Source: a bacterium
GTDB taxonomy: Bacteria; Patescibacteriota; Minisyncoccia; UBA6257; 2-01-FULL-56-20
NCBI GenBank assembly: GCA_021777495.1
Contig: JAJYDL010000001.1
Coordinates: 1 to 55,970, forward strand
Reading direction: 5' to 3'
Length of the DNA stretch: 55,970 nt
Shown: piece after piece, positions 27,102-55,970 of the stretch
How positions within the stretch are numbered: the stretch's first letter is position 1
Layout of the letters: each line of letters starts with the position of its first letter
The notes under the pieces: model-generated
Told to the model about the DNA's origin: nothing
The model's input: only the letters and a program-made list of their open reading frames with translations
Database searches by the model: none
Made by a program: the position numbers and the translations under genes

Positions 27102-27574
27102 GTACGTCTTCCCTCTCTTATTGCAATGGTCCGCGACCCCTCCTCTTTCCCGTACCCGAATTTTATCCATGCGGCGCGGCGCGGTATCGCCTCCTTTATC
27201 CGCTCGCCCCACTCGACGAGAACGATGTTTTTCGGATCCCCAAGAAGCGCTTCAAATCCCAGCACGGGGAGATGCGATGCGTCCTTCAGGCGATACGCGT
27301 CCATATGGAACACGCTCTTCCGCGCCGCGCGCGCGGCATACCGCCGCATGATCACGAACGTGGGGCTCGGTGCCCGGCGGCGGACGCCCAGTCCCCGCAG
27401 GAACCCCTGCACGAACGTCGTCTTTCCCGCACCAAGCTCTCCGGAAAGCACCACAACGGCGGCGCCCTTATTGCCGGGGGTCGCCTTCAGAAATCCTTTC
27501 GAGAACGCCTCGCCGAGGCGCTTCGTCTCCTCCGAAGAGGAGGTGCGATACGTATTCGTTCTTTTTGACCGCAT
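27098..27574 (-). CDS. tsaE: tRNA t6A biosynthesis ATPase TsaE
   Basis: LSGELGAGKTTFVQG P-loop with typical size and layout. Confidence 0.88.
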   Translation of the reverse strand: MRSKRTNTYRTSSSEETKRLGEAFSKGFLKATPGNKGAAVVVLSGELGAGKTTFVQGFLRGLGVRRRAPSPTFVIMRRYAARAARKSVFHMDAYRLKDASHLPVLGFEALLGDPKNIVLVEWGERIKEAIPRRAAWIKFGYGKEEGSRTIAIREGRRT

Positions 27575-28127
27575 ATATGAATATGATCATCACGACCGCG
27601 CCGAGCCCGAGCGCCGAGATCACGGCAAATACGGGTCCCGGTCCCGGAGGCCCCACGGGGACGCCCGCTTCGTAGCGGGCCGGAGCGGCAACGCTCCCGA
27701 ACGCCGCGTTCGCGGAACCCGGCGTGGGATCCGTAAACACGAACATCCCCGTCGCGGCTCCTTCCTCGATGCGCGAAAAGCTTTTTCCTTCCGGCGCGGC
27801 GCCGTGAAACGCAGCCCTATCGACGGATGACCCGTCCGGACCATATAACAATACTGCCCCGTCCGTATTTTTGAAAGACGGGGCTCCCTCGCCGCGGGTC
27901 ACCACGAGATAGCCTCTTCCCGGAACGGTCCTTCCTCCGAGCGAAAACGCCTTTGTCCGCAACGGAACGATCGCTTCCCCCCGTTCCGGCGTCGTGGTTC
28001 CCGTACCCGTACCGATCGACCACCCGTCGAGGGGTATCGCGACAGCAGTGTCGTTGAAAAGTTCCGCAAACTCTCCCGCGGCGTCGGGACCCGCGGGATT
28101 GGGCAGCCATTCGTTGATGAGAACCAC
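27468..28127 (-). CDS. lamin-tail-domain (LTD) protein with C-terminal TM anchor
   Basis: INEWLPNPAGPDAAGEFAELFN ... FKNTDGAVLLYGPDG is LTD-like, followed by the TM helix VFAVISALGLGAVVMIIFIYAV. The start codon is GTG. The 3' end overlaps tsaE by 107 nt. Confidence 0.8.
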   Translation of the reverse strand: MVLINEWLPNPAGPDAAGEFAELFNDTAVAIPLDGWSIGTGTGTTTPERGEAIVPLRTKAFSLGGRTVPGRGYLVVTRGEGAPSFKNTDGAVLLYGPDGSSVDRAAFHGAAPEGKSFSRIEEGAATGMFVFTDPTPGSANAAFGSVAAPARYEAGVPVGPPGPGPVFAVISALGLGAVVMIIFIYAVKKNEYVSHLLFGGDEAPRRGVLERISEGDPRQ

Positions 28128-28178: not shown

Positions 28179-29150
28179 TCAGAATACCCGCAGGAGAAGC
28201 TGTATGAGCACGAGACCGATGACGCCGAGGATGGCGACATAGGAGAACACGGATGCGTTCGGGTATCCGCTCTTGGGAACGGTCGTCGTGGGCGTGTACT
28301 CCTCGAGCCGTTCGTTCCCCGCGGCGTCGAACGCGCGCACCGCGATCGTATCGGTGAGCGATTGATCGGTGAGGAGATAGGGGCTGATCGCCCGCTTCCA
28401 ATCCCACTGGTCCTCCGGAAGCTTGAGATCGGAGGGCGGGATCTCGGCAATCTCGTAGTGATCGATGCCCGTCTGCTTGTCCACGGTCGAAAACGTGGCA
28501 AACCATTGATTATTGAAAAGCGAAGGGTCGCGATAGACGCCGATTGCGAAGGGCTCGGGCGGAACAGTATCGTCTTCGAGCGCCTTCTGCCAGGTATCCA
28601 CCGGCGCAAATTGTCCCTGGAGTATCTCCGCATATTTCGCGCCGGCGGTCGTAAGAGGCGCGATCGTTCCCTCGCCGTCGTTCAGCGTCGCCTGAGTGCC
28701 CGGAAGAAATGCGAGCAGTGCGCTCTCGGGAGCCGTCGAGGAGCCCGCGGCGGTCGATGTGGCGAAGCGGAAATAGATCGTCGCGAGCTTGTTGCTGAGC
28801 GAGGGATCTCCGGGGACGCGCCCGCAATATCCTCCGGGAAGCCCTCCCACGAACGAGATGATGCCGTACTGCGAATAGATCGTGGGGTTCTTGACCCACA
28901 TGGAGAATATGGAATCTCCGTCGCTTACGGCGACCGCCTGGAGGACGTCCGCGGGATATGCGATATCCACTTCGGCCGCATTGATGCATTGCGACGGGCC
29001 CGTATCGAGGCGGACGTCCACCGGGAACGTGACTCCCGGCGGATATTTGCCCGTTGCCGGATTGATATAGATCTGCGCCGCATGCGCAAAGAGAGGCATG
29101 ATGCCCGCATATACCATGGCTCCAAGAACGACCCCGACCCTCTTCTTCAT
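28179..29150 (-). CDS. cohesin-like domain protein, signal peptide plus C-terminal TM anchor
   Basis: IYINPATGKYPPGVTFPVDVRLDT...INAAEVDIAYPADVLQAVAVSDGDSIFSMW follows a cohesin-type pattern. C-terminal helix SVFSYVAILGVIGLVLIQLLL. Confidence 0.75.
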   Translation of the reverse strand: MKKRVGVVLGAMVYAGIMPLFAHAAQIYINPATGKYPPGVTFPVDVRLDTGPSQCINAAEVDIAYPADVLQAVAVSDGDSIFSMWVKNPTIYSQYGIISFVGGLPGGYCGRVPGDPSLSNKLATIYFRFATSTAAGSSTAPESALLAFLPGTQATLNDGEGTIAPLTTAGAKYAEILQGQFAPVDTWQKALEDDTVPPEPFAIGVYRDPSLFNNQWFATFSTVDKQTGIDHYEIAEIPPSDLKLPEDQWDWKRAISPYLLTDQSLTDTIAVRAFDAAGNERLEEYTPTTTVPKSGYPNASVFSYVAILGVIGLVLIQLLLRVF

Positions 29151-29178: not shown

Positions 29179-30336
29179 TTATCCCGTCCAGTAATACAGA
29201 AGAATGCTCAGGTCCGGGAGGTCCACTATGCCGTCGCCGTTCAGGTCCGCGGTGGGGTTGCTTGTCCCCCAGTAATAGAGGAGTATCGAGAAATCCGCAA
29301 GGTTCACCTTGCCGTCGCCGTTCAGGTCCGCAAGCAGCTTCTTGCTCGGCGTACCGCTGCCCACATAGAAGGGTACTGCCTGGCTTATCGTGCTCCGCAA
29401 TAACGCGCCGTTCTCCGTGGTGATGAAATCCGCATCCACCGTATGATAGGCGTCGTTCTGGAGCACCGAAGTGTCCACGGGCACCGCCCATCCTCCCATG
29501 GAATTCGTGGTTGTCGTCACTATAATGTTCCCGCCCGAATGCACGTGCACTTCGATCGTTGACGAAGGCACGGATTCTCCCGACACCGTCACCGTTCCCC
29601 CTTTTGCCACCTGGCGTTTGTCGATGGATATCGTCGGGGGCAGAAGTTCGCCGGAAATCGTGGTCGCGGCGTCCGCGGTGACGGTGAAGGTCGTCGTGAG
29701 CGCGATGGACTTGAGGCCCGTCGCATCCTGCGCCCAGATGCCGAAGGTATATACCCCGGGAGAGATGTTCGTCGTCGAGAAATAAAAATTCGCGTTGGAA
29801 TCCGCCTGTACGACCCCGATCGTCTGGCCGTCCTGGAGGATGTTCACGCTTGCGCCCGGATACGCCTGCCCCTGAATGATCACGGTCGTCGGATTCGGTG
29901 CGGTGTAGCTCCCCGGAGAATAGCCGAACGAAGGCGCCGGCGCGGGACCCGGTCCCGGCAGCGGTGCGAGCGACGTGATCTGGCATGTCGCGGAGCATCC
30001 CGATCCCGCCACCCCGTTCATCGCGCCCGCATCGCACTGCTCTCCGTACTGGGGCTGGAGGATCCCGTCGCCGCAGTACGGGGCCCATGCCCGGCACCCG
30101 GGCATGCACTGGCGGTTGGCCGATGATGTGGAATACTGCCCCGTGTTCGTTCCCGTATCGCACACCTCGGTGGGAGCCTGCACGATCCCGTCCCCGCATA
30201 CGCTGATCGTCACCGTGGTCGTCGCATAGCTTTGCGCCCGCACCGGCGCCGCCGGGGATGCAAACAGGAACAGTGCCGCCGCGGCTGCGGCGACGGAAAA
30301 GATGATTATGGTACGCAGGAATACCCGGCGGATCAT
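29179..30336 (-). CDS. secreted protein: Cys-rich repeats, Ig-like domains and a C-terminal dockerin
   Basis: CGDGIVQ..EVCD and CGDGILQ..EQCD repeats. Duplicated dockerin segment DLNGDGKVNLADFSILLYYWG ... DLNGDGIVDLPDLSILLYYW. Confidence 0.85.
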   Translation of the reverse strand: MIRRVFLRTIIIFSVAAAAAALFLFASPAAPVRAQSYATTTVTISVCGDGIVQAPTEVCDTGTNTGQYSTSSANRQCMPGCRAWAPYCGDGILQPQYGEQCDAGAMNGVAGSGCSATCQITSLAPLPGPGPAPAPSFGYSPGSYTAPNPTTVIIQGQAYPGASVNILQDGQTIGVVQADSNANFYFSTTNISPGVYTFGIWAQDATGLKSIALTTTFTVTADAATTISGELLPPTISIDKRQVAKGGTVTVSGESVPSSTIEVHVHSGGNIIVTTTTNSMGGWAVPVDTSVLQNDAYHTVDADFITTENGALLRSTISQAVPFYVGSGTPSKKLLADLNGDGKVNLADFSILLYYWGTSNPTADLNGDGIVDLPDLSILLYYWTG

Positions 30337-30345
30337 ATGCGTATA

Positions 30346-31350
30346 TTATGCTCTCGGCGCGCGCGGAGGGGGCGGCGTCGGAACGCCCTTCCTTCTTCCG
30401 CGCCGGCGGAACAACCCCCGGATGCCCACATACATCGCCCAAAGCATGAGCAGTATCCCCGCAAGGACCGCAAAGGTAATAAGCTTCTCCTGCCATGGCA
30501 ATACGAGGAAGTTGTAGGGGACATATCCCGGGATGCTTCCGGGTGGCAGCACGCTCAGATCGAGCGTACCCTGTCCGATGAGATCGCTGTCATCGCGTCC
30601 GTAGATCTGATAGAAAACCTTGTACGTACCCTGGGGCAGATAGGTGGGCATCTCCGCGGTCACGGTCTTCGTCTGGAACGGGTCGACGCTCGCAAGCCAG
30701 TTGGTATTCTGCTCCACCTCGAGCACCTTCTGGGTAAGGTAGTCGCTGTACGTGAACACCACTCTGTAAGGACTCCCTGAAATGTTCCCATCGTTCTCGA
30801 TATCCATATTAAAGAGAACCTTGCCCGGGAAATGCATCCAAAGCCATGTGAATCCCTGCTCCGCGTTCGTCATCGATACTCGCCGCACCTTGAAATCCAC
30901 ATTCTTCTGGTTTATCACGCGGAGGTTCACGTCGATCTGCGCGCCGATCGTAAGGCCGACGGTCCCCGCTGCGGGACCGTTCATGGGAGAGACGACTACC
31001 TGGATATTCCCCTGGTACTGTCCGAGCTTCGCATCGCTCGGCACATTCACGCTCACGATCATCGGCATCTCCTGCGTGCCGGACGGCATCGCGAACTGCG
31101 TGCCCTTGTCGATGGAAATCCAGCCGTCCGCCCCCGGAACATTCACCGTCACCTTTGCGGTGAGGTCCTGATCCGGCGTTCCGCGCACAAGGAGGATCTT
31201 CTGTTCGTAGTGCGAACCCGGCGCAAGCGCGTCATTCGTCACGTAGGGAGGAGTGATGCCGAATCCTTCGGCGTTCACGCGATGCACGCCGAATGAAAAG
31301 CCGGCGCACACAAGAAGCGCCGCCGCCGCTATAAAGTTCATCTTCCTCAT
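30346..31350 (-). CDS. CscA/DUF916-DUF3324-like surface protein with C-terminal TM anchor (paralog 1)
   Basis: Signal peptide. Shares motifs with 46075, 48490 and 49595 (G.Y.G.I; N[DT]G[ND][IV]; LPW just before the TM helix). Basic cytoplasmic tail. Confidence 0.8.
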   Translation of the reverse strand: MRKMNFIAAAALLVCAGFSFGVHRVNAEGFGITPPYVTNDALAPGSHYEQKILLVRGTPDQDLTAKVTVNVPGADGWISIDKGTQFAMPSGTQEMPMIVSVNVPSDAKLGQYQGNIQVVVSPMNGPAAGTVGLTIGAQIDVNLRVINQKNVDFKVRRVSMTNAEQGFTWLWMHFPGKVLFNMDIENDGNISGSPYRVVFTYSDYLTQKVLEVEQNTNWLASVDPFQTKTVTAEMPTYLPQGTYKVFYQIYGRDDSDLIGQGTLDLSVLPPGSIPGYVPYNFLVLPWQEKLITFAVLAGILLMLWAMYVGIRGLFRRRGRRKGVPTPPPPRAPRA

Positions 31351-31424: not shown

Positions 31425-33293
31425 CTACCAGTACTGCGCGGGGCTCTTCACGCCAACGAACGTGTTCTGTCCGGTGTACGCACCCGAAAGCTGGATGGTG
31501 CTCGGCACCGCGATACCCCAGAAGGTGGATCCCGTGCTCGGCGATGATGTTGCGATCGACTTGGGAATATGGATCGGCACAAGCGTGCCCGGATTCGTAA
31601 GGAGCGCGGCACCCGAACCGTAGGCGACGGACGACGTCGCGTACTGTATCTGCCCCACGGGAATGGTCGATGTGGTCGAAACGGCGCAGCTCGGATAGGT
31701 GGTACACATATTCGCACCGTACAGGGTTTCATTAAGACCGACGTTTCCCGTCGATGCAAGGATCGTGGACGTAGCAAGCGTCGGCGTGCTCGACCCCGGG
31801 CTCAATCCTCCGAAGTTGATGGCGGGCGTATCGAGCTGTGCCGCAAGGAAGCTTGCGACCTCGTTGCCGGTTGCGGCTTCCGTGAGAGGGCTCGATGAGC
31901 CGTTGTGGTTCGTCGCCTGCGCGCTCACGAGCCAGTTCTGGTTGTAATACTGCGTGTCGCTCGCGGTCGTGCCGTCCGTGGGATCCGCGACATACCACAG
32001 CGGGAAATAGCAGGTCCACGTTGCGCTGATGGAGCTCGAGCCGTTGCACGATCCCGTGTCCTGCGTGCAGGTGACGGGCCACGTGGACGACCCCACCGCA
32101 TTCGGATAGCAGTTATCGGGATTGTAATTCGGCCCCGTCTGGCACGATGCCTGGCCGATACCCGAACGATACACGTTGATGATGGCGGAAGTGATCTCCT
32201 GTCCCCCGGAAATCGTCTGACAACTATTGTCGTCCGAAACCGTGAACTTTACCGCAAACCCGTTCGTCTGTCCTCCCGGCACCGTAAGCGCGAGCGGATT
32301 CGTGGTTCCGTCGTTATTCAAAAGGCTGATGCTTGAAGAAGCGATCGTAGGCGCGACGTTGTTTATCGCGTACGTGGAGGTCGCCCCTTCCGCCCCGCCC
32401 GACGCGGGAAGCCCGTGCTGGTCCACGACATACCCATAGGAAGAATAGGTTCCGTCGGGACGCGGCAACGGGGTCGTGTATGAGCAGGTGGGATTGAGGG
32501 TTGTCGTCGCGGAAGTGCAGTACGTCCCCGCAGGACCGCAGGCCGAACCCGTAAAGTCGTTCGCCTTGCAGACGAAGAGCTGGATGGTATCGGTGGCCCC
32601 CGTGAATGTGTCGCTGTCCGATGCGACCGCCGTCCAGCTGATGTTCGTCCCGGGATTCACCGGACCGGTATTCGACAGGGAAGTGAACGCGGGGGGATGG
32701 TTGACCACGAAGGGCGACCCCGTCGTATAGGTCGCGTTGCACTTTGCTCCTCCAAAGTTGTTGTCGCAGATCCACGCATACCACGAATCGAACTGCGGAT
32801 CGCTGCTCGAGGCGGTATAGGTCGTGGTTGCGGTACCCGTACTCGGCGTGACGGCGGATACGCCCCACTGATTGACGGTGCCTCCGCCGCATGTGGGCGG
32901 CCCTCCCGCCGTACCGGGAGTCGGCGTGCTCGTGGACTTACAAAGGAGGAGGTAATAGCTGTCGTTATTGGGGTCGGTTGCCACGGCGTACCACGTCACC
33001 TTACTCCCCACGTTCGTCGGCGCGGTGGTGGTGGACACCGGATTCTCGTATGCGTTCGTCGTCCAGTTCGGCGGCGTGTTGAGCACCGTCACCGTCGTCG
33101 TTGCCGTGCTTTGTGCGAAGGTAAAGCGGGCATGATAGAGAGCGCCTGTCGCCCAGAAGTTCACGATGATGGCGGCGGCGGCCATAAAGATGCCCGAAAG
33201 GATCACGGCCACGGTCACGCGGCCACGCACATCCCGGACCTGTTCCTTCCACCATGCGATCCAACGTACGATCATGTAGGGATTTTTATTCAT
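31425..33293 (-). CDS. large secreted T/S-rich surface protein, C-terminal tail type II (..YTGQNTFVGVKSPAQYW)
   Basis: 622 aa with an N-terminal TM/signal anchor. The C-terminal region of about 130 aa is homologous to that of 37462-39519. Alternative start ATG 33275. Confidence 0.85.
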   Translation of the reverse strand: MNKNPYMIVRWIAWWKEQVRDVRGRVTVAVILSGIFMAAAAIIVNFWATGALYHARFTFAQSTATTTVTVLNTPPNWTTNAYENPVSTTTAPTNVGSKVTWYAVATDPNNDSYYLLLCKSTSTPTPGTAGGPPTCGGGTVNQWGVSAVTPSTGTATTTYTASSSDPQFDSWYAWICDNNFGGAKCNATYTTGSPFVVNHPPAFTSLSNTGPVNPGTNISWTAVASDSDTFTGATDTIQLFVCKANDFTGSACGPAGTYCTSATTTLNPTCSYTTPLPRPDGTYSSYGYVVDQHGLPASGGAEGATSTYAINNVAPTIASSSISLLNNDGTTNPLALTVPGGQTNGFAVKFTVSDDNSCQTISGGQEITSAIINVYRSGIGQASCQTGPNYNPDNCYPNAVGSSTWPVTCTQDTGSCNGSSSISATWTCYFPLWYVADPTDGTTASDTQYYNQNWLVSAQATNHNGSSSPLTEAATGNEVASFLAAQLDTPAINFGGLSPGSSTPTLATSTILASTGNVGLNETLYGANMCTTYPSCAVSTTSTIPVGQIQYATSSVAYGSGAALLTNPGTLVPIHIPKSIATSSPSTGSTFWGIAVPSTIQLSGAYTGQNTFVGVKSPAQYW

Positions 33294-33375: not shown

Positions 33376-34578
33376 TTATTTGTATCTGATGGCCTCGAGC
33401 GGACTTATGGATGAAGCCCTGCGCGCCGGGAAAATCCCCGTAATGAAGCCTACGATCGCCGAGAAAAGCGTGATAAACCCGAGGAATGTGAGGGGAAAGG
33501 CGAAAAGCGCCACCGCAGCGCCGCCGAAGTGCGTTGCCAATAGATTCAATAGATAATTGATGATGAGACCTCCGGCGATGCCTATGGCCATCCCCGTCAT
33601 GCCCCCCAGGAACCCGACCACGACCGCCTCCGCGAGGAAAAGGAACTGGATATCGCGGGGCGAACCGCCGATCGTACGCATGACGCCGATCTCCCCCGTG
33701 CGCTCAAGGAGCGTCACCGTCATGGTATTCACCATGCCGATCGCCGACACGATGAGCGCGATGCCGCCGAACCCTGCAAGGACCCATTGGACGCCGGTGA
33801 AGATCTGATTCGCCTGATCCACCGTCTTCGAGAGCGCCGACACCACATACCCATCCTTCACGATGGCGGCCTGGACGCCGCCGAGATTGCCGCTCGCGTT
33901 CACGCGCACCTGGACCTTGTCGTATTGCGGGATCCCCACCTGCGAGGAAAGCGTGGCAAGGGGAATCATCGCATAGATGGAGGCGCTGTCGTTCGTCACC
34001 CCCGTCACGGTGAAGTTCCCGTTCAGGGGCACCTGCTCGCTCTGCCCCCCGCCCTGCGCCTGCGTCACGATCCGGAACGATACCGGCTTCCCGATGATCG
34101 CCTTCGGATCGCTCACGCCGAAAAGCTGCAGCGCGGCGCTCGAAAGGATGACGTCGTTCGCATCCGAAGGCTGGTCGCTGAACTGGCTTCCTGCCGCCAT
34201 GGAAATGCCCGCGTATTTGAAATACGACGCCTGCGCCCCCTCGAGGTCCGTGTTCGCCGAAAGGCCGTTGTAGGTGATGAGCGACTGGAAGGTCGCGAGC
34301 GGCGATACGTCCTGGACGTTCGGGATCGCCTTGAACTTCGCAAGCGCGTTGTCGTCGAGCGTCACGGCGCTCGTTGCCGGCGGCGTAACGGTGAGGCTGA
34401 GGAGCGTATCGCCGAACACGATCTTCTCGAGCAGGATGTTCTGAAGGCCGAAACCGAGACCTACGAGCATCACGACCGCGGCGGTACCCACGCCCATGCC
34501 GAGGATCGTAAGCCATGTCCTTGCGGGATTGGTCTTGAACATCCTCGTGGAAAGCTTCAATGAATCGGCGACTCTCAT
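33376..34578 (-). CDS. ABC transporter permease, MacB/FtsX-like
   Basis: The N-terminal TM helix is followed by an extracytoplasmic domain of about 230 aa and then a C-terminal 3-TM FtsX domain. Confidence 0.88.
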   Translation of the reverse strand: MRVADSLKLSTRMFKTNPARTWLTILGMGVGTAAVVMLVGLGFGLQNILLEKIVFGDTLLSLTVTPPATSAVTLDDNALAKFKAIPNVQDVSPLATFQSLITYNGLSANTDLEGAQASYFKYAGISMAAGSQFSDQPSDANDVILSSAALQLFGVSDPKAIIGKPVSFRIVTQAQGGGQSEQVPLNGNFTVTGVTNDSASIYAMIPLATLSSQVGIPQYDKVQVRVNASGNLGGVQAAIVKDGYVVSALSKTVDQANQIFTGVQWVLAGFGGIALIVSAIGMVNTMTVTLLERTGEIGVMRTIGGSPRDIQFLFLAEAVVVGFLGGMTGMAIGIAGGLIINYLLNLLATHFGGAAVALFAFPLTFLGFITLFSAIVGFITGIFPARRASSISPLEAIRYK

Positions 34579-34597: not shown

Positions 34598-35908
34598 TCA
34601 GAGATACATGCCCTGCCCGATGAGCTTCTCGAGATACCAGCTCACGTGCCGCGCGGTATCGGGATCGAGGCCCATGCCGTCGCCCTCAAAAGGAGACTTG
34701 AGGCGGCGACGGAAATCCTCGGACTGGATGAATCCCCGGATGCGGAACTTGAGGAGCTCATCCATGCGCGCAATGCGCTCCGGCGGGATGCGGAACCCGC
34801 ACTCCCGCATGAGATCCTCGCGCACCTCGGCGATGCGGTCCCCCTGGCGCAGCGAGGCCACTTTTGCGGTGAAGTTATCCCGGTATGCGCGGATGTCCCG
34901 CGCCTCTTTGAGCACGATATTCAGCTTTTCTTCGAACATTTCCGCACGATGACGATCGATCTCCGGACCTCCTTCGTCCACGGACCTCGTAAGCCTGTCC
35001 ACAAACCCTTCATCCGTGAGCTTTCCGTCGATGAACATCCCGACCGTCCGTTCCAGCTGTTCGATCTGGTCGAAACCGATGTCCTGGGTGAGGAAATTCA
35101 CGACGCTCTTCACCCGCAGCTCCTCCGGCGACGCATACGGATAGATGCGCGCAAGCTTCTCGATCTCGGAAAGGATCGACGTCCCGGGGTCCACCTGCTT
35201 GATCTGTTTCTTCTCCGGGTTCACCACCTCGCGCTCCACGCCGCCGTCTTTCATGTGATAGACGCGGTGCGCATAGGGCAGCAGCTTCGCGTCATGGGTG
35301 ACGAGGATGACCGTCTTCTGCTGCTTCATGTTGATCTCCTCGAGCATGCCCATCACCTGGTCCGCCGACACGCTGTCGAGGTTGCCGACCGGTTCGTCGG
35401 CGAAAAGGATCTCCGGGTCGTTGATGAGCGAGCGCGCAACGGCGACGCGCTGCTGCTGGCCTCCCGAAAGATCCGTCGAGCGCTTGTGCGCCTGCTGATC
35501 CACGCCGAACTGTTTGAGCAGCTTCATTGCCCGCGCATACCGCTCCGCGGGCGGCACGTTTGCGAAGATGAGCGGGAGCGCGACGTTGTCGATCACGCTG
35601 AGCGACGGAATGAGGTTGAACGACTGGAAGATGATGCCCACCGTCTCCCTTTGGAACCGCACCATATCCTTCACGCCGTACTTATAGGGATTCTCCCCCT
35701 TCACGAGGATCTCCCCGGACGACGGCGGAAGAATGCCGAGCAGGCTGTAGAGCAGCGTCGATTTCCCGCAGCCCGAAGGGCCGAACAGGATGATATATTC
35801 CTTGGGATAGATCTCCAGGGTCTCCCCGCGCAGGGCATTGTATTCGTTCGACTTGCCCTGATTGTAGATGACTTTGATGTTATTTACCTTGATGATCGGC
35901 TCGAGCAT
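34598..35908 (-). CDS. ABC transporter ATP-binding protein (MacB/LolD type) with a C-terminal extension of about 210 aa
   Basis: Walker A GPSGCGKST, signature LSGGQQQR, Walker B ILFADEP. A helical extension of unknown family follows residue 225. Confidence 0.9.
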   Translation of the reverse strand: MLEPIIKVNNIKVIYNQGKSNEYNALRGETLEIYPKEYIILFGPSGCGKSTLLYSLLGILPPSSGEILVKGENPYKYGVKDMVRFQRETVGIIFQSFNLIPSLSVIDNVALPLIFANVPPAERYARAMKLLKQFGVDQQAHKRSTDLSGGQQQRVAVARSLINDPEILFADEPVGNLDSVSADQVMGMLEEINMKQQKTVILVTHDAKLLPYAHRVYHMKDGGVEREVVNPEKKQIKQVDPGTSILSEIEKLARIYPYASPEELRVKSVVNFLTQDIGFDQIEQLERTVGMFIDGKLTDEGFVDRLTRSVDEGGPEIDRHRAEMFEEKLNIVLKEARDIRAYRDNFTAKVASLRQGDRIAEVREDLMRECGFRIPPERIARMDELLKFRIRGFIQSEDFRRRLKSPFEGDGMGLDPDTARHVSWYLEKLIGQGMYL

Positions 35909-48489: not shown

Positions 48490-49602
48490 TCACTTCTTTC
48501 TGAGATCGACCGTCCCCTCCGGACCGCTCCGCGGGGCGTGAGGATGAGGAGGCTCGTGCGGCGGTTTCGGCCCCGGAGAACCATACCGTCCCATTTCCCG
48601 TTCGAGCATCTTTTTCACGTAACGCCGGAGAAGTATCACGAATCCGCCGATCACAAGAAGCGCGATCGCACCGTCTTCCGCGAGCATTCCCACCGGCAAC
48701 ACCCAGAACGTGAGCGTCTGGGACACGCTCTTCGTTCCGTCCGTGCCGTACGCAAGAGTGACGACCGCAGTAAAACGCCCTATATCCCACAAATTTCCCG
48801 GTCCCTGCCATTCCTCGCTGAACTTGCGGCTGCTCGAAGGCAGCACGTACCCGAACGTCTGCTCCTGATTCACCGGAACCGTCCCCTCCTCCTTTCCAAA
48901 CGCGTTATAGATCTGGATCTCCCCTACCGGACGCACGTGAACGTTGCCCGTGTTCGCAAACACGAGATTGAAGTTCACGTCGGGTCTTTGATAGAACCCT
49001 TTGTCCGTGGAAAATTCCTGGATGTTCCCGGATTCTTTTATATCCCCCGATACCGTGACGAATATAAGCGCCGAGATGAAGCTCGATATGCCGATATGGG
49101 ACCCCGCCGGAGCGCCGGATTCCCCCGGCGGCTGCGTACCGATCAGGATGCCGGCGTAATGCCCTCCGGGGGATGCGTCCTTCGGCACGGCTATCGAGAA
49201 CGGAATGTCCGCCGCGCTTCCCGGCGGCACCACCGCGGTGGAAGACCCGAGCGTTATCCAGTTCGCGAGAGCGTCGGAATCTCCCGCGATCGCCGAAAGA
49301 TTTTTGAATGTGCCGTGGCCCTCCTGATCGGAGGGCGCAAACCCCATCACCGTCGCCACCACGGGAAGCGGTGCGGCGTTCGTGTTCACCACGCGGATAG
49401 AGCTCGCCCACGCATCGCCGGGCGACGCATTGAGCGTGAAGAACGGCGGCGTGATGGTGAGCGACGTCGCATCGGCCGACTGCGCGTCCGCGCGGGACAC
49501 GAAGCACGGCGCTCCCGCCGCGAGCGCGATAAGGACGAACATCGCGCCCGCCGCGGCGCGGCGCATCCCTCCGAACATCATCGTGCGTGCGCCGTTATTC
49601 AT
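48490..49602 (-). CDS. CscA/DUF916-DUF3324-like surface protein with C-terminal TM anchor (paralog 3)
   Basis: Signal peptide and the motifs GGHYAGILIG, NTGNVHVRPVGEIQIYNAFG and FWVLP followed by a TM helix. Pro/His-rich cytoplasmic tail. Confidence 0.8.
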   Translation of the reverse strand: MNNGARTMMFGGMRRAAAGAMFVLIALAAGAPCFVSRADAQSADATSLTITPPFFTLNASPGDAWASSIRVVNTNAAPLPVVATVMGFAPSDQEGHGTFKNLSAIAGDSDALANWITLGSSTAVVPPGSAADIPFSIAVPKDASPGGHYAGILIGTQPPGESGAPAGSHIGISSFISALIFVTVSGDIKESGNIQEFSTDKGFYQRPDVNFNLVFANTGNVHVRPVGEIQIYNAFGKEEGTVPVNQEQTFGYVLPSSSRKFSEEWQGPGNLWDIGRFTAVVTLAYGTDGTKSVSQTLTFWVLPVGMLAEDGAIALLVIGGFVILLRRYVKKMLEREMGRYGSPGPKPPHEPPHPHAPRSGPEGTVDLRKK

Positions 49603-50590
49603 GGTGGTGGGGATGCTTAAGGTCTATCACCTGTTTGTTCTTGAGGAGATGTTCGATGAGCTGGCGTCGACGATGATGCCGTTTCGCGTATTCGCGATGC
49701 AAGAACGATGCGGCCACGATCACCACAATGAGCAGCGTGATGAAGATTGCGAGCAGCTCCTTCCATGGAAGGATCCAGAAGATCGCCGTATCCGCAAGTT
49801 GCGCGTCCTGGGCCCCATAGGCCGCTTCGAGCCCTACTTTATATTCCCCCATACCGCCCGCTCCGTTCCATGAAGCGGTGAAGTTCTTGGTGTCTCCCGG
49901 TGCGATGGAGATTCCCTCCGGATTCACGGGCACCGATCCGAGGTCGTGTCCGATGCGGTCGTAGAATATCACGTCCCCGCCCGGGTCCGAGGGTACATCG
50001 CCCGTATTCTTGATGGCGTAGTCCACCACGACCGGGAACCCCGCGGACACCCTCTTTTCCGGACCGAAACTCACAAGCTGAAGCTCTTCTTTAAGGTCGG
50101 ATATGACCGTGAAGTTCACAAGCGCCTGGGGCGCTCCGTCGAGATGCTGCTCGGCTTCGGCCCTCGTCCCTCCTTCCACGAACGCCACGACGGCATGATA
50201 ATCGCCCGCCGTCGCATAGGGATTGATCGTCACGCTCATCGGAATTGTCTTCGTCTCTCCGGGAGCGAAGATCATCGCCCCGCGCGAAATCCCTATCCAA
50301 TCGGCCAGGAACGCCGGCCGGTCCGAGCTCGCGGGATCCGTAAAGGGCTGCGTTCCGCTCGCCGTGAGTTCGTACACCGACGCGAAAACATTGAGCTGTC
50401 TGCCGCTCGTGTTCGTGACCGTGAGCGTGTAATTGAACATGTCGTCCGGGACCCCGCTCGTGTCGATCACCGCGGGCGCGACCGTAAGGTCCGCGGCATG
50501 CGCGACAGGCGCGGCGCGCATCCACGCCGCGGCGGAAAACGCCATGATGGCGGCGAGGAGCAGGATCGGATGTGATATGCGCTTCATCAT
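49595..50590 (-). CDS. CscA/DUF916-DUF3324-like surface protein with C-terminal TM anchor (paralog 4)
   Basis: Signal peptide and the motifs AGDYHAVVAFV, NTGDVPSDPGGDVIFYDRIG and FWILPW followed by a TM helix. His-rich tail. 8-nt overlap with paralog 3. Confidence 0.8.
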   Translation of the reverse strand: MMKRISHPILLLAAIMAFSAAAWMRAAPVAHAADLTVAPAVIDTSGVPDDMFNYTLTVTNTSGRQLNVFASVYELTASGTQPFTDPASSDRPAFLADWIGISRGAMIFAPGETKTIPMSVTINPYATAGDYHAVVAFVEGGTRAEAEQHLDGAPQALVNFTVISDLKEELQLVSFGPEKRVSAGFPVVVDYAIKNTGDVPSDPGGDVIFYDRIGHDLGSVPVNPEGISIAPGDTKNFTASWNGAGGMGEYKVGLEAAYGAQDAQLADTAIFWILPWKELLAIFITLLIVVIVAASFLHREYAKRHHRRRQLIEHLLKNKQVIDLKHPHHHE

Positions 50591-50603: not shown

Positions 50604-53600
50604 TTAGAATACCGGGGTCGCGATATAGATCACGTTGTCGTTATAGTTGCCGTTCACCTGCGTCGGGCCCGCCTGTACGCGGTATACGACATTGATCGTG
50701 CTCGTGGCGGGCCCTCCCGAATAGCCGATCTCCGCCGGCGTCGACGTGAGCGCCGCATACGAATCATCCGCGGCGAACCGCGTCGATCCGCCCGAAAGCA
50801 CGGGGCTCCCGGGATGATATCCGTAACAGGCGGTGGAAGTCGCGGTGCAGGCCGATGACCATGGCAGCGGACTTCCGTTCGTCGCATCCACTCCCGGCAA
50901 GACATAACCGCGCCCGTTCATAAGCGGCGCATCCTGAAGTGCGTAGAGTTCGAATCCGTTCGGCGCGTCGGTCGAGATGAGGAGCTGCTGCGCCGCCATC
51001 GAACTCGTGGCGATCGTGAGCGTGCCGAACGAGATCCCGGCGGGCGTGGACGATGCGGTCGTCACAATGCCGTCGGTCGAAGTGCCCTGCGGCATGCCGC
51101 TTACCGTGAAGGTGAGGAGCGCGCCCTCTACCGCAAGGCTCGGATACGACGAAGTGCCGTAGAGCGCCACGGGCGATCCGGTCCCGTTGTTCACGAGACG
51201 GAAGAAATAGGTGGCGTTCGTCGTTGCGCCGTTCCCCACGATCGTGAATTCGTATTCGGTGACGGCTCCCGCCTGCTGCGTGAAGGTGGACGAGCTTATC
51301 CCCGACGTGTTGTGCGTGCCGCATCCCGGTCCCACGCCGCTCGTACAGGCGCTCGAATCCGAAAGTACCGCAGTGGAGATCACCGCATTGTCCGTGCCCC
51401 CCGTCGATGTGGCATAGCACCACTGCGACGAAGAGGTGCAGCTCCCCACCTCCGCCACGGATCCCACCCCGGACGAAAAATTGCTGTAGGTGGAATATTG
51501 AAGGGCGAACTTCACATTGCTCCCGGAAACATTGTTCGTCTCGGCCACCGCCACCCGGAGCTTGATAGTGCTCCCGTTCTCCACCGTCGAGGGCGCGACG
51601 TTCTCCCCCGCAAGCGGGATCACCGGCGTTTCATCGTTCGCGTCGCTGTAAAATCTCCAGTTCGCCGACTCCGGATTGAACGGCGCCGTTGTCACTGCGG
51701 GATAATACACATACGAGTCGAGCGGCGTGCCGTCGCTCTTCGCCATGCGGAAGCAATATGATGCCGAGGAGCTCGTACTGTTGTACTGAAGCACCCAGTC
51801 GTATTCGATGTTGTCTCCGATAAGCGATCGGTAAGGGTTCGCCGCGGACGGGTTTGCGTCCGCATATACGCCGTCGCGATTCGACACGGAAAGCAGCAGG
51901 GTGGTGAGCGGCGTGCCGTTCGTAACGCCCGCATTCGCATACCCGTTCCACGGTCCCGCGCCGCCGATCGCGCCCACATCGCTCCATGACGAAATCGCGC
52001 TGCACGATGTCGTCATCACCCCGTACTGCAGTTTGAACGCCTGCGTCGACGTGGGAAGGACCGCGCCGCCGAGCGTCACCGCCATGCGGAGACGAAGCAC
52101 GCTCCCGGACGTCGGCGGCGAGTCGGCCGCGGTGATCGCCATGTTCTCCCCGAGCGTCGACGTGCCCGCGGGCCACGCCGCGGTCGGCGTGAGCGCATTC
52201 GTATTCACATACCAGCGGTAATAGTTCTCGGCGAAGGTGGAACTTGCCGCCACCACGTTGATCTGGGGATAGACCGAGTAGGTGCCGATCGACGCCCCGT
52301 TGTTGGTCGCACGGAAATAATATGTCTGCCCGAATGTTGCGCCTTCCGTCGCCTGGATGTTCCACTCGAGCTCCGTGAATTGATTCGTATTGATCGCGAT
52401 CACGGGCGAAGGGGTCGTACTTTCCAGCATGAAGCCGCTCACGAACGTTGCCGCCGCCGGAGTAAGAAGGCTGTGTGTCGGATCGAGATCCGCGAAATAT
52501 CCCGAAGGGCACTCGCGGAACGCCGCGGCGATCGTGGAGCAGGTGGGATCGACGGGCACCGGCGTCCATGGCCCCGCGGTGGATGTCGCATATTCCAACC
52601 GGAACGCGGCGCTCGCGGCGGTGTTCCCGTTGTTCGAAAATTCCATGCGCAAGCGCACGCTCGTGTCTTCGGTCGTGCTCGTCGGCGTCGTTTCGGCGGC
52701 GCGCCAGGTCGCCGAAGGGACCGTGTCCACCTCCGGATAATTCACATACCCGTCGAGCGAGGCGCCCGCTCCGGTCATCATGCGGAAACAATACGCCGCG
52801 CCCGACGGCGCATCGTTGTCCTGCACCACGAAATCCCATTCTCCCGTGCCGTTCGCGGGAATGGGGTTCGGGTTCGCCGGCGAGGGATTCTGCTCTATGT
52901 ACGATTCGGGGACGGTGGAACTCGAGAGGAGCGTCGCGGTGAGCGTCGTGCCGTCGGTCGTGCTTGCGTTGCTGTAGCCGCGCCACGGCGCGGAAGATCC
53001 GAAGGCGCCCACATCCGCAAAGTTCGCCGAAGGAACCGCGCTGCACGATGCCGCGGTTCCCTTCGGGGCATACTGCAGTTTGAATGATTGCGTGGAGCTC
53101 GGAAGCGCCGCGCCGCCCACCTCGATATTCATCACAACCCTCACGACCTCCCCTGAAACGGTCCCTGTCGCAGCCGCATCCTGCGCAGCGAGCGAAGACG
53201 TCGGCTGGACCGCATTGATATTTTTATATATCTGGAAATCCTGCTGGGTAAGGGTTGCGGAAGGCATGGTGGTGAACCCTCCGAGTCCCACCCCCGCCGC
53301 GGGGCTCACGGTCCCCGCGCCCACCGTGACGTCGGTCGAGGGGTTCGCGATCGTAAGCTCGAAGGTCTGGCCTGCGGGAGAGGACGAGGCGATGTTCACC
53401 TGGGCGTAGATGCAGACGTTCGCGGTGCCCACGGGCATCGTGCCCGTCACGGTCGCCTGTTCCGATGCGTTGAAGGATCCCCCCGTCGCGTTGAAGAGGG
53501 TCGCTCCTGCGGGGATGCTCGAGGTGGCGCAGGTGGTCGCCGCCTGATAGTAGAGGGAAAGGTTCCCGAGATAGGCGTTCGCGTTCAGGGTGCCCGATGC

Positions 53601-54749
53601 GGTCACCATGATGCTCGTGATATTCGTCGTGCCGGAATCCCTCGCCATCGTGAATGCGCCGCCGGTATAGAAGGCGGTCGCGGGGACGGTCGTCGTCGCG
53701 AACTGGGATCCCGTCGCTCCCACGGTGACCGATGCGGGGGTATACGTGATGACGATGATGCCCTGGGTGCCGGCGGCGCCGGCGCCGCCGCTCGTACCGT
53801 TTTTACCTTCCCCTCCTCCGCCGCCTCCGCCGGATCCGTACGTGCCTCCCGTCTGTCCCGGATTTCCGTTCGCATGTAATGCGCCGCCGGTGCCGCCTCC
53901 GCCGCCTCCGCCGGATCCGTACGTGCCCCATTCCGTACCGGCGCTTCCCGCGGTATCCGCCGCGCCGCCCGCGCCGCCGAACGTGGCATCGCCCTGTCCG
54001 CCGACCTGGCCCGACGCGGTGCCGCCGGCAGCACCGGGACTTCCCGCCGCACACGTCGCGGCGCCGCATCCCGCCGCGCCGCCCGCGCCGCCTCCATTGC
54101 CTCCGTTATTTCCCCCTCCCGCGGTTCCCGCGGCGCCGGCTCCTCCGCTCATGGTCACGGTTCCTTTTCCGCTTGCCGCCGCACCGCCCGTACCGTTCGT
54201 GGAACCGGATCCTCCGGTACCTCCTTTTGCGCCCACGATCACGGCGGTGCCGGTGATGGATGCGCAGTTCGAGGTGCTGTTGCAGAGGTAGGTGTCGCCT
54301 CCCGTCGTGCCTGCGGCTCCTCCCGTGCCAAGGGTAAGCGATACCACCGTGCCGGGGGTGAGGGATGCGTTCAGGATCTTGGCGTATGCGCCGCCTCCGC
54401 CTCCGCCTCCGCCGGCACCCGCGCTTGCGGTAGTGCCCGCCGCGCCGCCGCCGCCTCCGCCAATCACCTCGATCGTGTTCGACGCGCTATTCCAGTCCGC
54501 GGGCACGGTCCATGTGGTGGAGGCGGTGCTCGTGATGAAGATCGTGCTCTGCGCCGCAAGGATCCTTTTCGGCGGCTGTCCGAAGAACGCGGCGGACCAC
54601 ACGAGCGCGAACACGAGCGCCCCGAGCGCCGAAGGGATGGCCGCTTTTCTCGCCGCACGCTTCATAACGGGAACAAGGTCCCTTATGGTGCGCCTTTTCG
54701 GCGGGATGCGCTTCTCGTTGTGTCGCCTCGGAAATTTCATAATCGTCAT
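50604..54749 (-). CDS. giant (1381 aa) modular surface adhesin: glycine-rich N-domain, four repeat modules, C-terminal tail type I (..NYNDNVIYIATPVF)
   Basis: N-terminal signal anchor. Gly-rich region of about 250 aa. Module motifs are Y/F-R-W/I-Y, RLRM, FKLQY and YCFRM. The C-terminal domain is homologous to that of 47226-48359. Confidence 0.88.
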   Translation of the reverse strand: MTIMKFPRRHNEKRIPPKRRTIRDLVPVMKRAARKAAIPSALGALVFALVWSAAFFGQPPKRILAAQSTIFITSTASTTWTVPADWNSASNTIEVIGGGGGGAAGTTASAGAGGGGGGGGAYAKILNASLTPGTVVSLTLGTGGAAGTTGGDTYLCNSTSNCASITGTAVIVGAKGGTGGSGSTNGTGGAAASGKGTVTMSGGAGAAGTAGGGNNGGNGGGAGGAAGCGAATCAAGSPGAAGGTASGQVGGQGDATFGGAGGAADTAGSAGTEWGTYGSGGGGGGGTGGALHANGNPGQTGGTYGSGGGGGGGEGKNGTSGGAGAAGTQGIIVITYTPASVTVGATGSQFATTTVPATAFYTGGAFTMARDSGTTNITSIMVTASGTLNANAYLGNLSLYYQAATTCATSSIPAGATLFNATGGSFNASEQATVTGTMPVGTANVCIYAQVNIASSSPAGQTFELTIANPSTDVTVGAGTVSPAAGVGLGGFTTMPSATLTQQDFQIYKNINAVQPTSSLAAQDAAATGTVSGEVVRVVMNIEVGGAALPSSTQSFKLQYAPKGTAASCSAVPSANFADVGAFGSSAPWRGYSNASTTDGTTLTATLLSSSTVPESYIEQNPSPANPNPIPANGTGEWDFVVQDNDAPSGAAYCFRMMTGAGASLDGYVNYPEVDTVPSATWRAAETTPTSTTEDTSVRLRMEFSNNGNTAASAAFRLEYATSTAGPWTPVPVDPTCSTIAAAFRECPSGYFADLDPTHSLLTPAAATFVSGFMLESTTPSPVIAINTNQFTELEWNIQATEGATFGQTYYFRATNNGASIGTYSVYPQINVVAASSTFAENYYRWYVNTNALTPTAAWPAGTSTLGENMAITAADSPPTSGSVLRLRMAVTLGGAVLPTSTQAFKLQYGVMTTSCSAISSWSDVGAIGGAGPWNGYANAGVTNGTPLTTLLLSVSNRDGVYADANPSAANPYRSLIGDNIEYDWVLQYNSTSSSASYCFRMAKSDGTPLDSYVYYPAVTTAPFNPESANWRFYSDANDETPVIPLAGENVAPSTVENGSTIKLRVAVAETNNVSGSNVKFALQYSTYSNFSSGVGSVAEVGSCTSSSQWCYATSTGGTDNAVISTAVLSDSSACTSGVGPGCGTHNTSGISSSTFTQQAGAVTEYEFTIVGNGATTNATYFFRLVNNGTGSPVALYGTSSYPSLAVEGALLTFTVSGMPQGTSTDGIVTTASSTPAGISFGTLTIATSSMAAQQLLISTDAPNGFELYALQDAPLMNGRGYVLPGVDATNGSPLPWSSACTATSTACYGYHPGSPVLSGGSTRFAADDSYAALTSTPAEIGYSGGPATSTINVVYRVQAGPTQVNGNYNDNVIYIATPVF
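52827..52979 (-). repeat. 153-nt near-identical block shared by the tandem adhesin genes (partner 54908-55060)
   Basis: 151/153 nt identical, with two T/C differences, embedded in otherwise diverged sequence. Confidence 0.9.
53288..53406 (-). repeat. 119-nt identical block (partner 55852-55970, limited by window edge)
   Basis: Exact identity by direct comparison of the printed sequence. Confidence 0.9.
53425..53536 (-). repeat. 112-nt identical block (partner 55512-55623)
   Basis: Exact identity. It encodes ATLFNATGGSFNASEQATVTGTMPVGT in both genes. Confidence 0.9.
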
Positions 54750-55970
54750 TCGCCGCCGTCATTGTTCCTCCATCGATAATCGACCTGGAAAAGAGGCGGC
54801 ACCACCCAAATCTCGGGGAAATTGTTGTATTGATCGAGTGCCGTTCCGCCGCTCTTCACCGCACGGAAACAATATCCCGCACCGGATGCCGCACCGTTGT
54901 TATAAATCACGAAATCCCATTCTCCCGCGCCGTTCGCGGGAATGGGGTTCGGGTTCGCCGGCGAGGGATTCTGCTCTACGTACGATTCGGGGACGGTGGA
55001 ACTCGAGAGGAGCGTCGCGGTGAGCGTCGTGCCGTCGGTCGTGCTTGCGTTGCTGTAGCCCGTCCAAATCGTCGATGATCCGATGGGCCCCACGTCCGCG
55101 AAGTTTCCCGAGGGAACGCTCGCGCACGACGCGTACCCCCCCTCCGCCGCATACTGCAGTTTGAATGCCTGCGACGATGTCGCAAGAGATCCTCCGGAGG
55201 AAATGATATTGAGCACTACCCGGATGGGCGTGCTCTGCGCGATCGCGGTGGCGGATGCGTCCTCCGGAGCGAGCGGCGCCACCGGCTGCACCGCATTCAC
55301 ATTGGCATAGATGCGGTAGTCCTTCTCTATGAAAAAGGACGAGGGAGCCTGGAGCGTCGTCGATCCCGAGAGCGTCACGGCGGTCGAAGGAGCCACCGTC
55401 CCCGCGCTTGCGATCACCTCGGTCGATGGGTTCGCGATCCCCATGTTGATGGTCTGGTTCGCGGTAGCGCCCGACCCTACGCTCACCTGCACATAAAGAC
55501 ATACCGTGGAAGTGCCCACGGGCATCGTGCCCGTCACGGTCGCCTGTTCCGATGCGTTGAAGGATCCCCCCGTCGCGTTGAAGAGGGTCGCTCCTGCGGG
55601 GATGCTCGAGGTGGCGCAGGTGGATTGCTGGTCATAGAACAGTTCGAGGTTGCTCAGGTTGGCATTCGCATTCACCGTCCCGTTCTGGGTGATCATGATC
55701 TGGGTCACCGTCGTGGATCCGTTGTTCCGCGCAAGCGCGAATGCTCCTCCCGTATAAAATGTGGTGTTCGGTATGCTTGTCGTCGCGAACTGCGATCCGG
55801 TGGCGCTCACGGTGATGACCGGCTGCTGCACCGCGGTGGCGCCCGGTATCGCCACCCCCGCCGCGGGGCTCACGGTCCCCGCGCCCACCGTGACGTCGGT
55901 CGAGGGGTTCGCGATCGTAAGCTCGAAGGTCTGGCCTGCGGGAGAGGACGAGGCGATGTTCACCTGGGCG
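54746..55970 (-). CDS. paralogous modular surface adhesin, 3' part (5' end outside window)
   Basis: The reading frame is open to the window edge. It contains the same ATGSQF... and FKLQY/YCFRAV modules. ATGA overlap with the downstream giant gene. Confidence 0.85.
   Translation of the reverse strand, partial: AQVNIASSSPAGQTFELTIANPSTDVTVGAGTVSPAAGVAIPGATAVQQPVITVSATGSQFATTSIPNTTFYTGGAFALARNNGSTTVTQIMITQNGTVNANANLSNLELFYDQQSTCATSSIPAGATLFNATGGSFNASEQATVTGTMPVGTSTVCLYVQVSVGSGATANQTINMGIANPSTEVIASAGTVAPSTAVTLSGSTTLQAPSSFFIEKDYRIYANVNAVQPVAPLAPEDASATAIAQSTPIRVVLNIISSGGSLATSSQAFKLQYAAEGGYASCASVPSGNFADVGPIGSSTIWTGYSNASTTDGTTLTATLLSSSTVPESYVEQNPSPANPNPIPANGAGEWDFVIYNNGAASGAGYCFRAVKSGGTALDQYNNFPEIWVVPPLFQVDYRWRNNDGGE

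Follow-up and report, generated by a model that had tools for sequence, protein, structure and literature searches.

A conserved surface-protein gene cluster of Paceibacteria with WxLIP homologues, two new C-terminal module families and cohesin-dockerin proteins

The window analyzed here is a stretch of 55,970 nt (positions 1 to 55,970 of contig JAJYDL010000001.1, assembly GCA_021777495.1), and its positions 27468-55963 are filled by twenty consecutive, tightly packed open reading frames (ORFs), all on the minus strand, which we numbered O1 to O20 in order of increasing coordinate. This locus encodes four homologues of WxLIP, the membrane anchor of the Firmicute WxL surface complexes, together with secreted proteins whose C-termini are formed by either of two new modules, here called TailA and TailB, and two cohesin and two dockerin proteins, and its gene order recurs in many Patescibacteria. 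On balance, and with modest confidence, we read it as a non-covalent cell-surface display system of Paceibacteria with two kinds of tether. Proteins identical to those of the locus are found on contigs of the Candidatus Paceibacterota / Parcubacteria metagenome-assembled genome (MAG) GCA_021834285.1 and of ENA assemblies, and the named homologues of the locus proteins all come from Patescibacteria, which agrees with an earlier reading of the DNA from its sequence alone (the sequence-only reading) that the organism belongs to the Candidate Phyla Radiation (CPR) type. Patescibacteria account for a large share of bacterial diversity, and their cultivated members live attached to other cells; to our knowledge, very little is known of the make-up of their surface beyond type IV pili.

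The run of twenty minus-strand ORFs and the overlaps quoted for it in the sequence-only reading were confirmed in our ORF calls: the ATGA overlaps at 41488-41491 and 54746-54749 and the ATGAATAA overlap at 49595-49602 are exact, and the 32-nt overlap of O11 and O12 is valid given a start of O11 at ATG 43317, the start used by gene callers in related contigs (the O11 ORF is open up to 43398). The remaining intergenic gaps measure 9-130 nt, and the last ORF, O20, is incomplete and runs to the contig end. Topology prediction placed an N-terminal hydrophobic segment in 15 of the 20 products; O6 crosses the membrane several times, hydrophobic segments are lacking in O7 and O12, and O1 has a C-terminal helix only. 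C-terminal transmembrane helices are found in the four O15-type proteins and in both cohesin proteins. An LPXTG-like motif was absent from the last 60 residues of all 20 proteins and a sortase domain from the window ORFs scanned, as the sequence-only reading had stated. Domains were called with Pfam and paralogy with BLASTP among the twenty proteins. Pfam bore out every domain identification of that reading (LTD, two cohesins, two dockerins, MacB/FtsX with an ATP-binding cassette (ABC) protein, four FN3 domains, Hsp20), NCBIfam gave sub-threshold noise only on the ten unannotated proteins, and BLASTP sorted the products into the paralogy groups O4/O15/O17/O18, O5 and O9, O16 and O19, O3 and O13, and O19, O20 and O9.

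The anchor family consists of O4 (30346..31350), O15 (46075..47187), O17 (48490..49602) and O18 (49595..50590). O17 matches O15 at E=6e-52, O18 matches both O15 and O17 at E about 1e-24, and O4 is a paralogue of O15 and O18. O15 narrowly misses the cut-off of the Pfam model PF06030 (WxLIP_PGBD, formerly DUF916), with 25.0 bits against 27.3. In alignment A1, which holds 33 members of the anchored-protein family including O4, PF06030 is matched by 22 members at E<=0.01 (best 2.4e-7), and the generic PF06280 fn3_5 model matches the same region in 13. When the A1 profile was compared with PDB sequences, the only significant match was WxLIP1 of Enterococcus faecium (EfmWxLIP1; 9I25 chain C and 9I1Y; E=1.6e-6). 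The AlphaFold2 model of O15 (pLDDT 85.7) consists of two beta-sandwich domains followed by a long transmembrane helix, and its top Foldseek matches in the PDB were again 9i25_C, entitled "WxLIP from Enterococcus faecium locus A bound to long WxL" (E=1.7e-13), then 9i1y; the alignment with 9i25_C, a chain of 251 residues, is 263 columns long and has a TM-score by target of 0.54. A WxLIP is defined as a PGBD, then an HBD, then a transmembrane helix, with its gene beside those of one small and one large WxL protein (PMC10599100, PMC9772566). The structure and topology of O15 show this architecture, with a PGBD-like domain, a second Ig-like domain and a C-terminal transmembrane helix; O4 likewise has two beta-sandwich domains and a C-terminal transmembrane helix. 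By profile and by fold, O4, O15, O17 and O18 are true homologues of the Firmicute WxLIP.

A more distant WxLIP-like gene (34% identity) lies in another Paceibacterota surface cluster (L006:1-20978), whose other products are a dockerin protein, an M48 peptidase, small proteins without annotation and a 2165-residue protein with a Peptidase_S74 (intramolecular chaperone) domain. Since this cluster differs from the present one, WxLIP-like anchors serve in more than one context in Paceibacterota. A further WxLIP-like match (P0063) belongs to Saccharimonadales.

Next to the anchor genes lie those of the secreted tail proteins. O5 (31425..33293), which has an N-terminal signal anchor and no Pfam match, and O9 (37462..39519) share their C-terminal ~400 residues (TailA; E=5e-35). 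O16 (47226..48359), a small protein of 377 residues with an Ig-like head and the most conserved component of the locus, and O19 (50604..54749), a signal-anchored protein of 1381 residues, share their C-terminal ~190 residues (TailB, 170-190 residues). O19 further contains a Gly-rich region and repeated domains of ~180 residues without Pfam match, which it has in common with O9 and O20 (54746..55963). The latter is the 3' part of a large repeat protein cut by the contig end and is 64% identical to residues 341-678 of O19. After the signal anchor, at approximately residues 95-330, O19 carries a long Gly/Ala/Thr-rich stretch with runs of 5-8 glycines and no Pfam match. The sequence-only reading had spoken of four secreted proteins with conserved C-terminal tails. 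The tails are indeed conserved, but they belong to two sequence-unrelated families rather than one, as no similarity between TailA and TailB was detectable.

Both tails are widespread. An exhaustive search with the TailA profile found 1429 clusters at 50% identity, in which the match lies nearly always at the very C-terminus of proteins of ~200 to 2500 residues. Five of eight long TailA proteins sampled had a Pfam match, always N-terminal (DUF2341, DUF7483, Flg_new / Listeria-Bacteroides repeats and, under its cut-off, MG2), and none of the Pfam matches of these eight was an enzyme domain. Judged from these sequences, TailA appears to behave as a modular C-terminal anchor. TailB is carried by >900 proteins. 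TailA and TailB are two new, large families of C-terminal module, both unannotated. The TailA hidden Markov model (HMM) has matches in related loci, and the TailB HMM matches the O19 position in most of them. Genes of the O16 family stand in tandem in some genomes, with two copies in L011 and L012 (8600-11100) and three in L086 (10100-14000), and the genome of the closest relative has a second, lone copy, ~50% identical, elsewhere (L019, from the same MAG as L009).

The folds of O15 and O16 raise another reading of the locus, as an assembly pathway for a fibre, a pilus or a surface layer. The WxLIP-like proteins would then be membrane-tethered PapD-like chaperones that hold subunits with an incomplete Ig fold by donor-strand complementation and hand them over to a filament or lattice, with O16 as the major subunit and the ABC transporter as the source of energy. 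Second to WxLIP among the Foldseek matches of O15 are the chaperones of chaperone-usher systems (CfaA, FimC, Caf1M and FaeE; E about 1e-10 to 1e-8), with which it shares two Ig-like domains. O16 is by far the most conserved protein (905 homologues at 40-78% identity), occurs in the tandem copies just mentioned, and has neither a Pfam nor a PDB sequence match; its AlphaFold2 model (pLDDT 92.5; two beta domains) as a whole resembles generic two-Ig adhesins and integrin legs, only its N-terminal domain resembles BslA, a coat protein (TM-score by target about 0.6), and there is a weak match to the TasA fibre 8aur (E=8e-4). However, no usher-like or polymerase component is present in the locus, the TM-scores to the chaperones and to TasA are low (0.3-0.6), and the O16 monomer folds confidently with no missing strand. 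Because the WxLIP-like proteins are integral membrane anchors, retention fits them better than hand-over. The likeness of O15 to the PapD-like chaperones is one of fold only: the sequence identity is 8-14%, O15 is anchored by a transmembrane helix, and usher and outer membrane are both missing. We therefore regard a fibre-assembly pathway as unlikely.

The second set of complementary proteins comprises cohesins and dockerins. O11 (41488..43317) has a signal peptide, a cohesin domain (PF00963, 46.6 bits against a cut-off of 24.1), a Big_13 domain (45.5 bits), a transmembrane helix at residues 522-540 and an acidic, helical cytoplasmic tail of ~95 residues. O2 (28179..29150) has a signal peptide, a cohesin-like domain that at 22.7 bits stays under the same cut-off, and a transmembrane helix at residues 305-323; in the cohesin region it is paralogous to O11 (E=2e-15). 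The secreted proteins O3 (29179..30336; Cys-rich DUF4215 and Ig-like Big_6) and O13 (43926..45620; O16-type head and Ig-like Big_13) each end in a type I dockerin (Dockerin_1, 38.6 and 29.5 bits, respectively, against a cut-off of 22.9), with two Ca-binding repeats each in the form DLNGDGKVNL...DLNGDG(I/V)(V/I)DL. The N-terminal ~180 residues of O13 are homologous to the head of O16 (E=3e-9), and its C-terminal part to O3 (E=3e-42). That a dockerin protein and a TailB protein bear the same head domain suggests two parallel tethers for related cargo.

Cell-anchored cohesins, in the manner of anchoring scaffoldins, and type I dockerins with two Ca-binding repeats are what the locus shares with known cohesin-dockerin systems. 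Unlike those systems, it has a single cohesin per anchor and a transmembrane helix instead of an SLH or sortase attachment, and it places both inside a WxLIP-type cluster. With cohesin and dockerin modules present, one may think of a cellulosome-like or Csc-like complex that captures and uses extracellular polysaccharides. The Csc clusters of Lactobacillus were at first tied to carbohydrate utilization (PMC1534035), and weak sub-threshold matches of sugar-binding type do occur (Cellulase-like, 15.9 bits, in O2; CHB_HEX_C_1 in O11). However, none of the 20 ORFs has a match at threshold to a glycoside hydrolase, a lyase, an esterase or a recognised carbohydrate-binding module, and this is equally true of the sampled TailA relatives. 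In contrast to those of cellulosomes, the dockerin proteins O3 and O13 carry Ig-like and head domains and no enzymes. We think a role in polysaccharide capture very unlikely.

The genes O6 (33376..34578) and O7 (34598..35908) encode a permease and its ATPase. O6 combines a MacB_PCD extracytoplasmic domain, which lies between the first and second transmembrane helices, with the FtsX four-helix fold (Pfam 79.2 and 52.8 bits), and O7 scores 110 bits on ABC_tran. The closest PDB sequences are YtrF, MacB and LolC for O6 and MJ0796, LolD and MacB for O7, and on these grounds the two form a type VII ABC transporter, comparable to MacB, LolCDE, FtsEX, YtrEF and Spr0694-0695, with O7 being LolD/MJ0796-like. 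They differ from these systems in having no recognisable MacA-like adaptor or EnvC/PcsB-like partner, in the ~200-residue C-terminal extension of O7 (residues 230-436; helical, charged and without Pfam match), and in the protein O8 (35919..37418), which is signal-anchored, has four FN3-like domains (Pfam fn3 / Pur_ac_phosph_N) and is always encoded directly upstream of the pair.

The other members are O10, O12, O14 and O1. O10 (39563..41491) is signal-anchored, with a Ser/Thr/Ala/Pro-rich stalk (S 14%, T 11.5%, A 16%, P 10%) and a folded C-terminal part, and 7 loci conserve both its N-terminal and its C-terminal part. O14 (45633..46061) is a small protein with two transmembrane helices (residues 10-28 and 97-115), weakly conserved in 8 loci. 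O12 (43286..43888) is a cytoplasmic small heat-shock protein (HSP20, 40.1 bits); its gene sits inside the surface-protein locus and overlaps the start of the cohesin-anchor gene O11 by 32 nt. O1 (27468..28127) is an LTD protein (35.2 bits) with a C-terminal transmembrane helix at residues 166-184 and an overlap of 107 nt with tsaE (27098-27574). It has no signal peptide, and no homologue was found in 79 related loci; contrary to the sequence-only reading, which had counted it in the set, O1 is probably not part of the conserved system.

The strongest evidence for the locus comes from its relatives. A scan with the O16 alignment, over one genome per GTDB species, gave 287 stretches with a relative. 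The best 80 of these all belong to Patescibacteria, and Kaiser-, Lloyd-, Nomura-, Sung- and Harrisonbacteria, Minisyncoccia and Paceibacterota are represented among them. Gene order was counted in 79 related loci by tblastn with the twenty proteins and with the WxLIP-like, TailA and TailB HMMs. In every locus all matches fall on one strand, and at protein identities of 30-60% the order persists in Kaiser-, Lloyd-, Nomura-, Sung- and Harrisonbacteria as well as in other groups. A WxLIP-like ORF lies at most 3 kb from a TailB ORF on the same strand in 67 of the 79, and the recurring pattern is TailB(large)-WxLIP-WxLIP-TailB(small)-WxLIP. The order O16-O15-O13 is found in 47 loci, O17-O16-O15 in 44, O19-O18-O17-O16-O15 in 34, O13-O12-O11 in 21 and O11-O10-O9 in 7. 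The sequence-only reading had declared beforehand that lack of a conserved neighborhood in related genomes would count as refutation, and the neighborhood proved to be conserved.

These relatives also divide the locus. A core of O19-O18-O17-O16-O15-O13-O12-O11 (module A) recurs separately from O8-O7-O6-O5-O4-O3-(O16-like)-O2-(O11-like) (module B), which is found in eight Nomurabacteria-type and related loci and partly in L005; the order O8-O7-O6-O5-O4-O3 occurs in 7 loci, and O5-O4-O3 and O3-(O16-like)-O2 in 8 each. Cohesin and dockerin occur once each per module (O11 with O13 in module A, O2 with O3 in module B). Across module B loci O6 is 52-55% identical, and full-length matches to O7 (residues 1-434, with the extension) were found only there. 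In the window, therefore, two modules are joined, A running from O20 to O9 and B from O9 to O2, and the locus is not the single unit described in the sequence-only reading.

Conservation of order is also what decides against a third alternative, namely that unrelated surface and housekeeping genes came to stand side by side in a small, strand-biased genome. All genes of the window are read from the minus strand, and the Hsp20, LTD and ABC genes have no demonstrated link to the rest. The first 27 kb of the window contain ordinary housekeeping genes, all on the minus strand (PolX, ClpB, LexA, TruD, tRNA-Arg, an RNase J-like enzyme, a Mur ligase, RuvA, CTP synthase, a histidine kinase, a 5'-3' exonuclease and TsaE), and because at least 16 housekeeping genes in the window share the strand of the locus genes, that strand is not special by itself. 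It is the conserved gene order, not co-orientation, that is real evidence for the locus: the order is held at the identities given above over many lineages, always on one strand, and the complementary pairs (cohesin with dockerin, WxLIP-like with tail) stand together in each module. Synteny thus largely refutes mere co-location for the core, and as an account of the locus we find it quite improbable.

The signals between the genes were cited for co-location as well, as they point to several transcription units. Extended -10-like boxes of the form TGnTAnnnT (e.g., TGATATACT and TGCTATACT) lie at 29151-29172, 39520-39541, 43889-43910 and 45621-45642, and from their ends it is 7-11 nt to the start codons of O2, O9, O12 and O13. 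Such boxes precede 4 of 19 locus genes; the corresponding figures are 0 of 17 for housekeeping genes and 1.2% for random 40-nt windows. O3, O5 and O6 have plain TATACT-like boxes before them, and a Shine-Dalgarno sequence is absent at the genes with either kind of box. A scan for sigma-70 promoters and terminators gave counts equal to shuffled expectation, with nothing above chance, and the only match of the Rfam and tRNA scans over the window was the tRNA-Arg, outside the locus. The -10-like boxes suggest internal promoters, leaderless or short-leader mRNAs, and several transcription units in the array. The boxes argue against a single 28-kb operon, without undoing the functional linkage implied by synteny.

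The GC content of the locus (~0.60-0.63) matches that of the rest of the window. GC skew moves from about -0.1 (1-28000) to about 0 (28000-54000) exactly at the start of the locus, with the genes remaining on the minus strand, and the shift probably reflects the richness of the surface proteins in Thr, Ser, Ala and Gly and not a replication feature. Among the housekeeping genes there is an IS30-like transposase ORF (10262-11239, minus strand; HTH_38 and a weak rve match), which adjoins a LexA-like repressor gene (9252-10064).

The nearest known systems are the Csc/WxL clusters of Lactobacillales and Bacillales (9I25 / 9I1Y; PMC1534035, PMC9772566, PMC10599100), which consist of a WxLIP (DUF916, DUF3324 and a transmembrane helix), small and large WxL proteins, and an LPXTG protein, CscD. 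WxL domains are reported to be >91% Firmicutes, with WxL systems almost entirely in Lactobacillales and Bacillales, and large WxL proteins combine a C-terminal anchor module with variable adhesin-like passengers, a design that the TailA proteins share. The present locus shares with these clusters a homologous anchor (PGBD-like domain, second Ig-like domain, C-terminal transmembrane helix), whose gene or genes lie beside those of small and large secreted proteins with a common C-terminal module and differing N-terminal adhesin-like domains, all of them exported. The small and large partners are O16 (377 residues) and O19 (1381 residues) for TailB and O5 and O9 for TailA, a pattern seen in 34-67 of the 79 loci. 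This layout is an architectural analogy with Csc/WxL, by which homology of the modules is not established. The locus differs in that TailA and TailB are not WxL by any sequence test, in having three to four anchors per locus, in the addition of cohesin/dockerin, a type VII ABC transporter, an FN3x4 protein and Hsp20, and in its Patescibacteria host. Two or more WxL (PF13731) proteins within four genes of the WxLIP gene, as in a Csc cluster, were not found in the locus, nor were an LPXTG CscD and a sortase, which are frequent but not obligatory, found in the window. The likeness to Csc/WxL clusters drawn in the sequence-only reading hence stands for the anchors, which are WxLIP homologues adjoined by small and large secreted partners, and fails for the partner tails, which are not detectably WxL. 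Because the defining WxL domain was not found, the locus falls outside the Csc/WxL class in the strict sense. What is new here is a WxLIP-type layout to which cohesin-dockerin and type VII ABC layers are added, and which brings two new families of anchor module. In the searchable literature we found nothing linking WxL, DUF916/WxLIP or cohesin-dockerin surface clusters with Patescibacteria and no description of the combination, in agreement with the claim that it was undescribed.

True WxL clusters are present on Enterococcus plasmids and megaplasmids (L007:375-1181, L008:2748-5788), and 74 plasmid records match the WxLIP1 fragment. On E. gilvus pCR1A two partner proteins have W-S-V and Y-Q-L instead of WxL motifs. 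One match to the WxLIP1 fragment, at 52% identity, is on a record labelled Klebsiella pneumoniae (CP069367.1) that looks mislabelled or contaminant.

In the display system that we favor, the first tether would be formed by the WxLIP homologues O4, O15, O17 and O18, each with two Ig-like domains and a C-terminal transmembrane helix, which would capture secreted proteins ending in TailA (O5, O9) or TailB (O16, O19), possibly by beta-strand insertion, as the Firmicute WxLIP holds WxL (9I25). O4 always follows the TailA gene O5, and O15 always follows the small TailB gene O16; these fixed adjacencies, together with that of O19 and O18/O17, suggest cognate pairs. In the second tether, the single-pass cohesin proteins O2 and O11 would hold the dockerin-ended Ig-repeat proteins O3 and O13. 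The assembled proteins may make up the outer protein coat of the cell or an adhesive layer on it. The ABC transporter O7/O6 with its FN3 partner O8 might perform extracytoplasmic mechanical work for assembly, remodelling or release, and the Hsp20 O12 could be a cytoplasmic holdase. The terms "host-attachment organelle" and "ABC mechanotransducer", by which the sequence-only reading had described the purpose of the locus and the role of the transporter, are likewise conjectural.

Several results weigh against this account. The second WxLIP domain, PF11797 (DUF3324/HBD), has no sequence match in O15 or in the A1 members. All of the tether pairings, WxLIP-like with tail as well as cohesin with dockerin, are predicted from genes and models, and the genes do not pair one to one: module A has three WxLIP-like genes versus two TailB genes, and module B one versus two or three tail genes. 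In 12 of the 79 loci a lone TailB gene has no WxLIP-like neighbor, and the ABC pair is absent from loci that have module A only. Finally, the tails resemble WxL in none of the searches. PF13731 matched neither the window proteins nor, at E<=1, any of 81 TailB members; the TailA and TailB profiles, run against the PDB at E<=10, did not find the WxL chain 9i25_A and gave only one chance haemagglutinin match; hhalign of TailA and TailB with WxL gave probabilities of 0.1-1.8%; and 9i25_A was not in the top 50 Foldseek matches of the O16 model.

For these comparisons the reference set of true WxL proteins consisted of Enterococcus plasmid proteins and their relatives, all with PF13731, and the tail alignments held 81-82 (TailB) and 15-148 (TailA) sequences. 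hhalign was run in local, global and low-mact modes and also with the 9i25_A fragment added, and hmmsearch with --max. The true WxL profile found 9i25_A in the PDB at E=0.0018, and hhalign aligned the small-type and large-type WxL sets with 95.2% probability, against 0.1-0.2% for the tails in the same comparison; both controls being positive, the method of comparison works. That the tails are WxL domains was accordingly rejected, with Pfam, PDB profile, hhalign and hmmsearch all negative. By eye, tails and WxL have similar motifs in the same order (FG, G-aromatic-x-V, and Y-x3-h-x-aromatic-x3-P at the C-terminus). hhalign puts the C-terminal motifs of the two in register, but at P=0.3-0.5, and because the other tests were negative we take the resemblance for no more than a lead and do not claim homology.

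A broader proposal, which we put forward tentatively and hold to be rather doubtful, is that Paceibacteria, and perhaps Patescibacteria widely, share a dedicated machine for building the envelope, in which chaperone-like WxLIP homologues and cohesin anchors would assemble a coat of TailA, TailB and dockerin proteins and a type VII ABC transporter would drive the process; such a coat might be the periodic surface layer or the host-contact structure of these ultra-small cells. The assemblies of near-complete relatives measure 881,652 to 994,774 bp (roughly 0.9-1.0 Mb), so that ~28 kb would be about 3% of the genome. A concrete candidate for a major component of the surface is O16, the protein of the locus that is conserved best. 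The TailA and TailB families could help to annotate many "hypothetical" giant CPR proteins, and they give specific protein pairs that can be tested. The WxLIP fold is extended by these results from the lactic acid bacteria to the CPR, and, if the proposal is true, WxLIP-based display would be an ancient trait of monoderm (Terrabacteria-type) bacteria and not a specialty of Lactobacillales.

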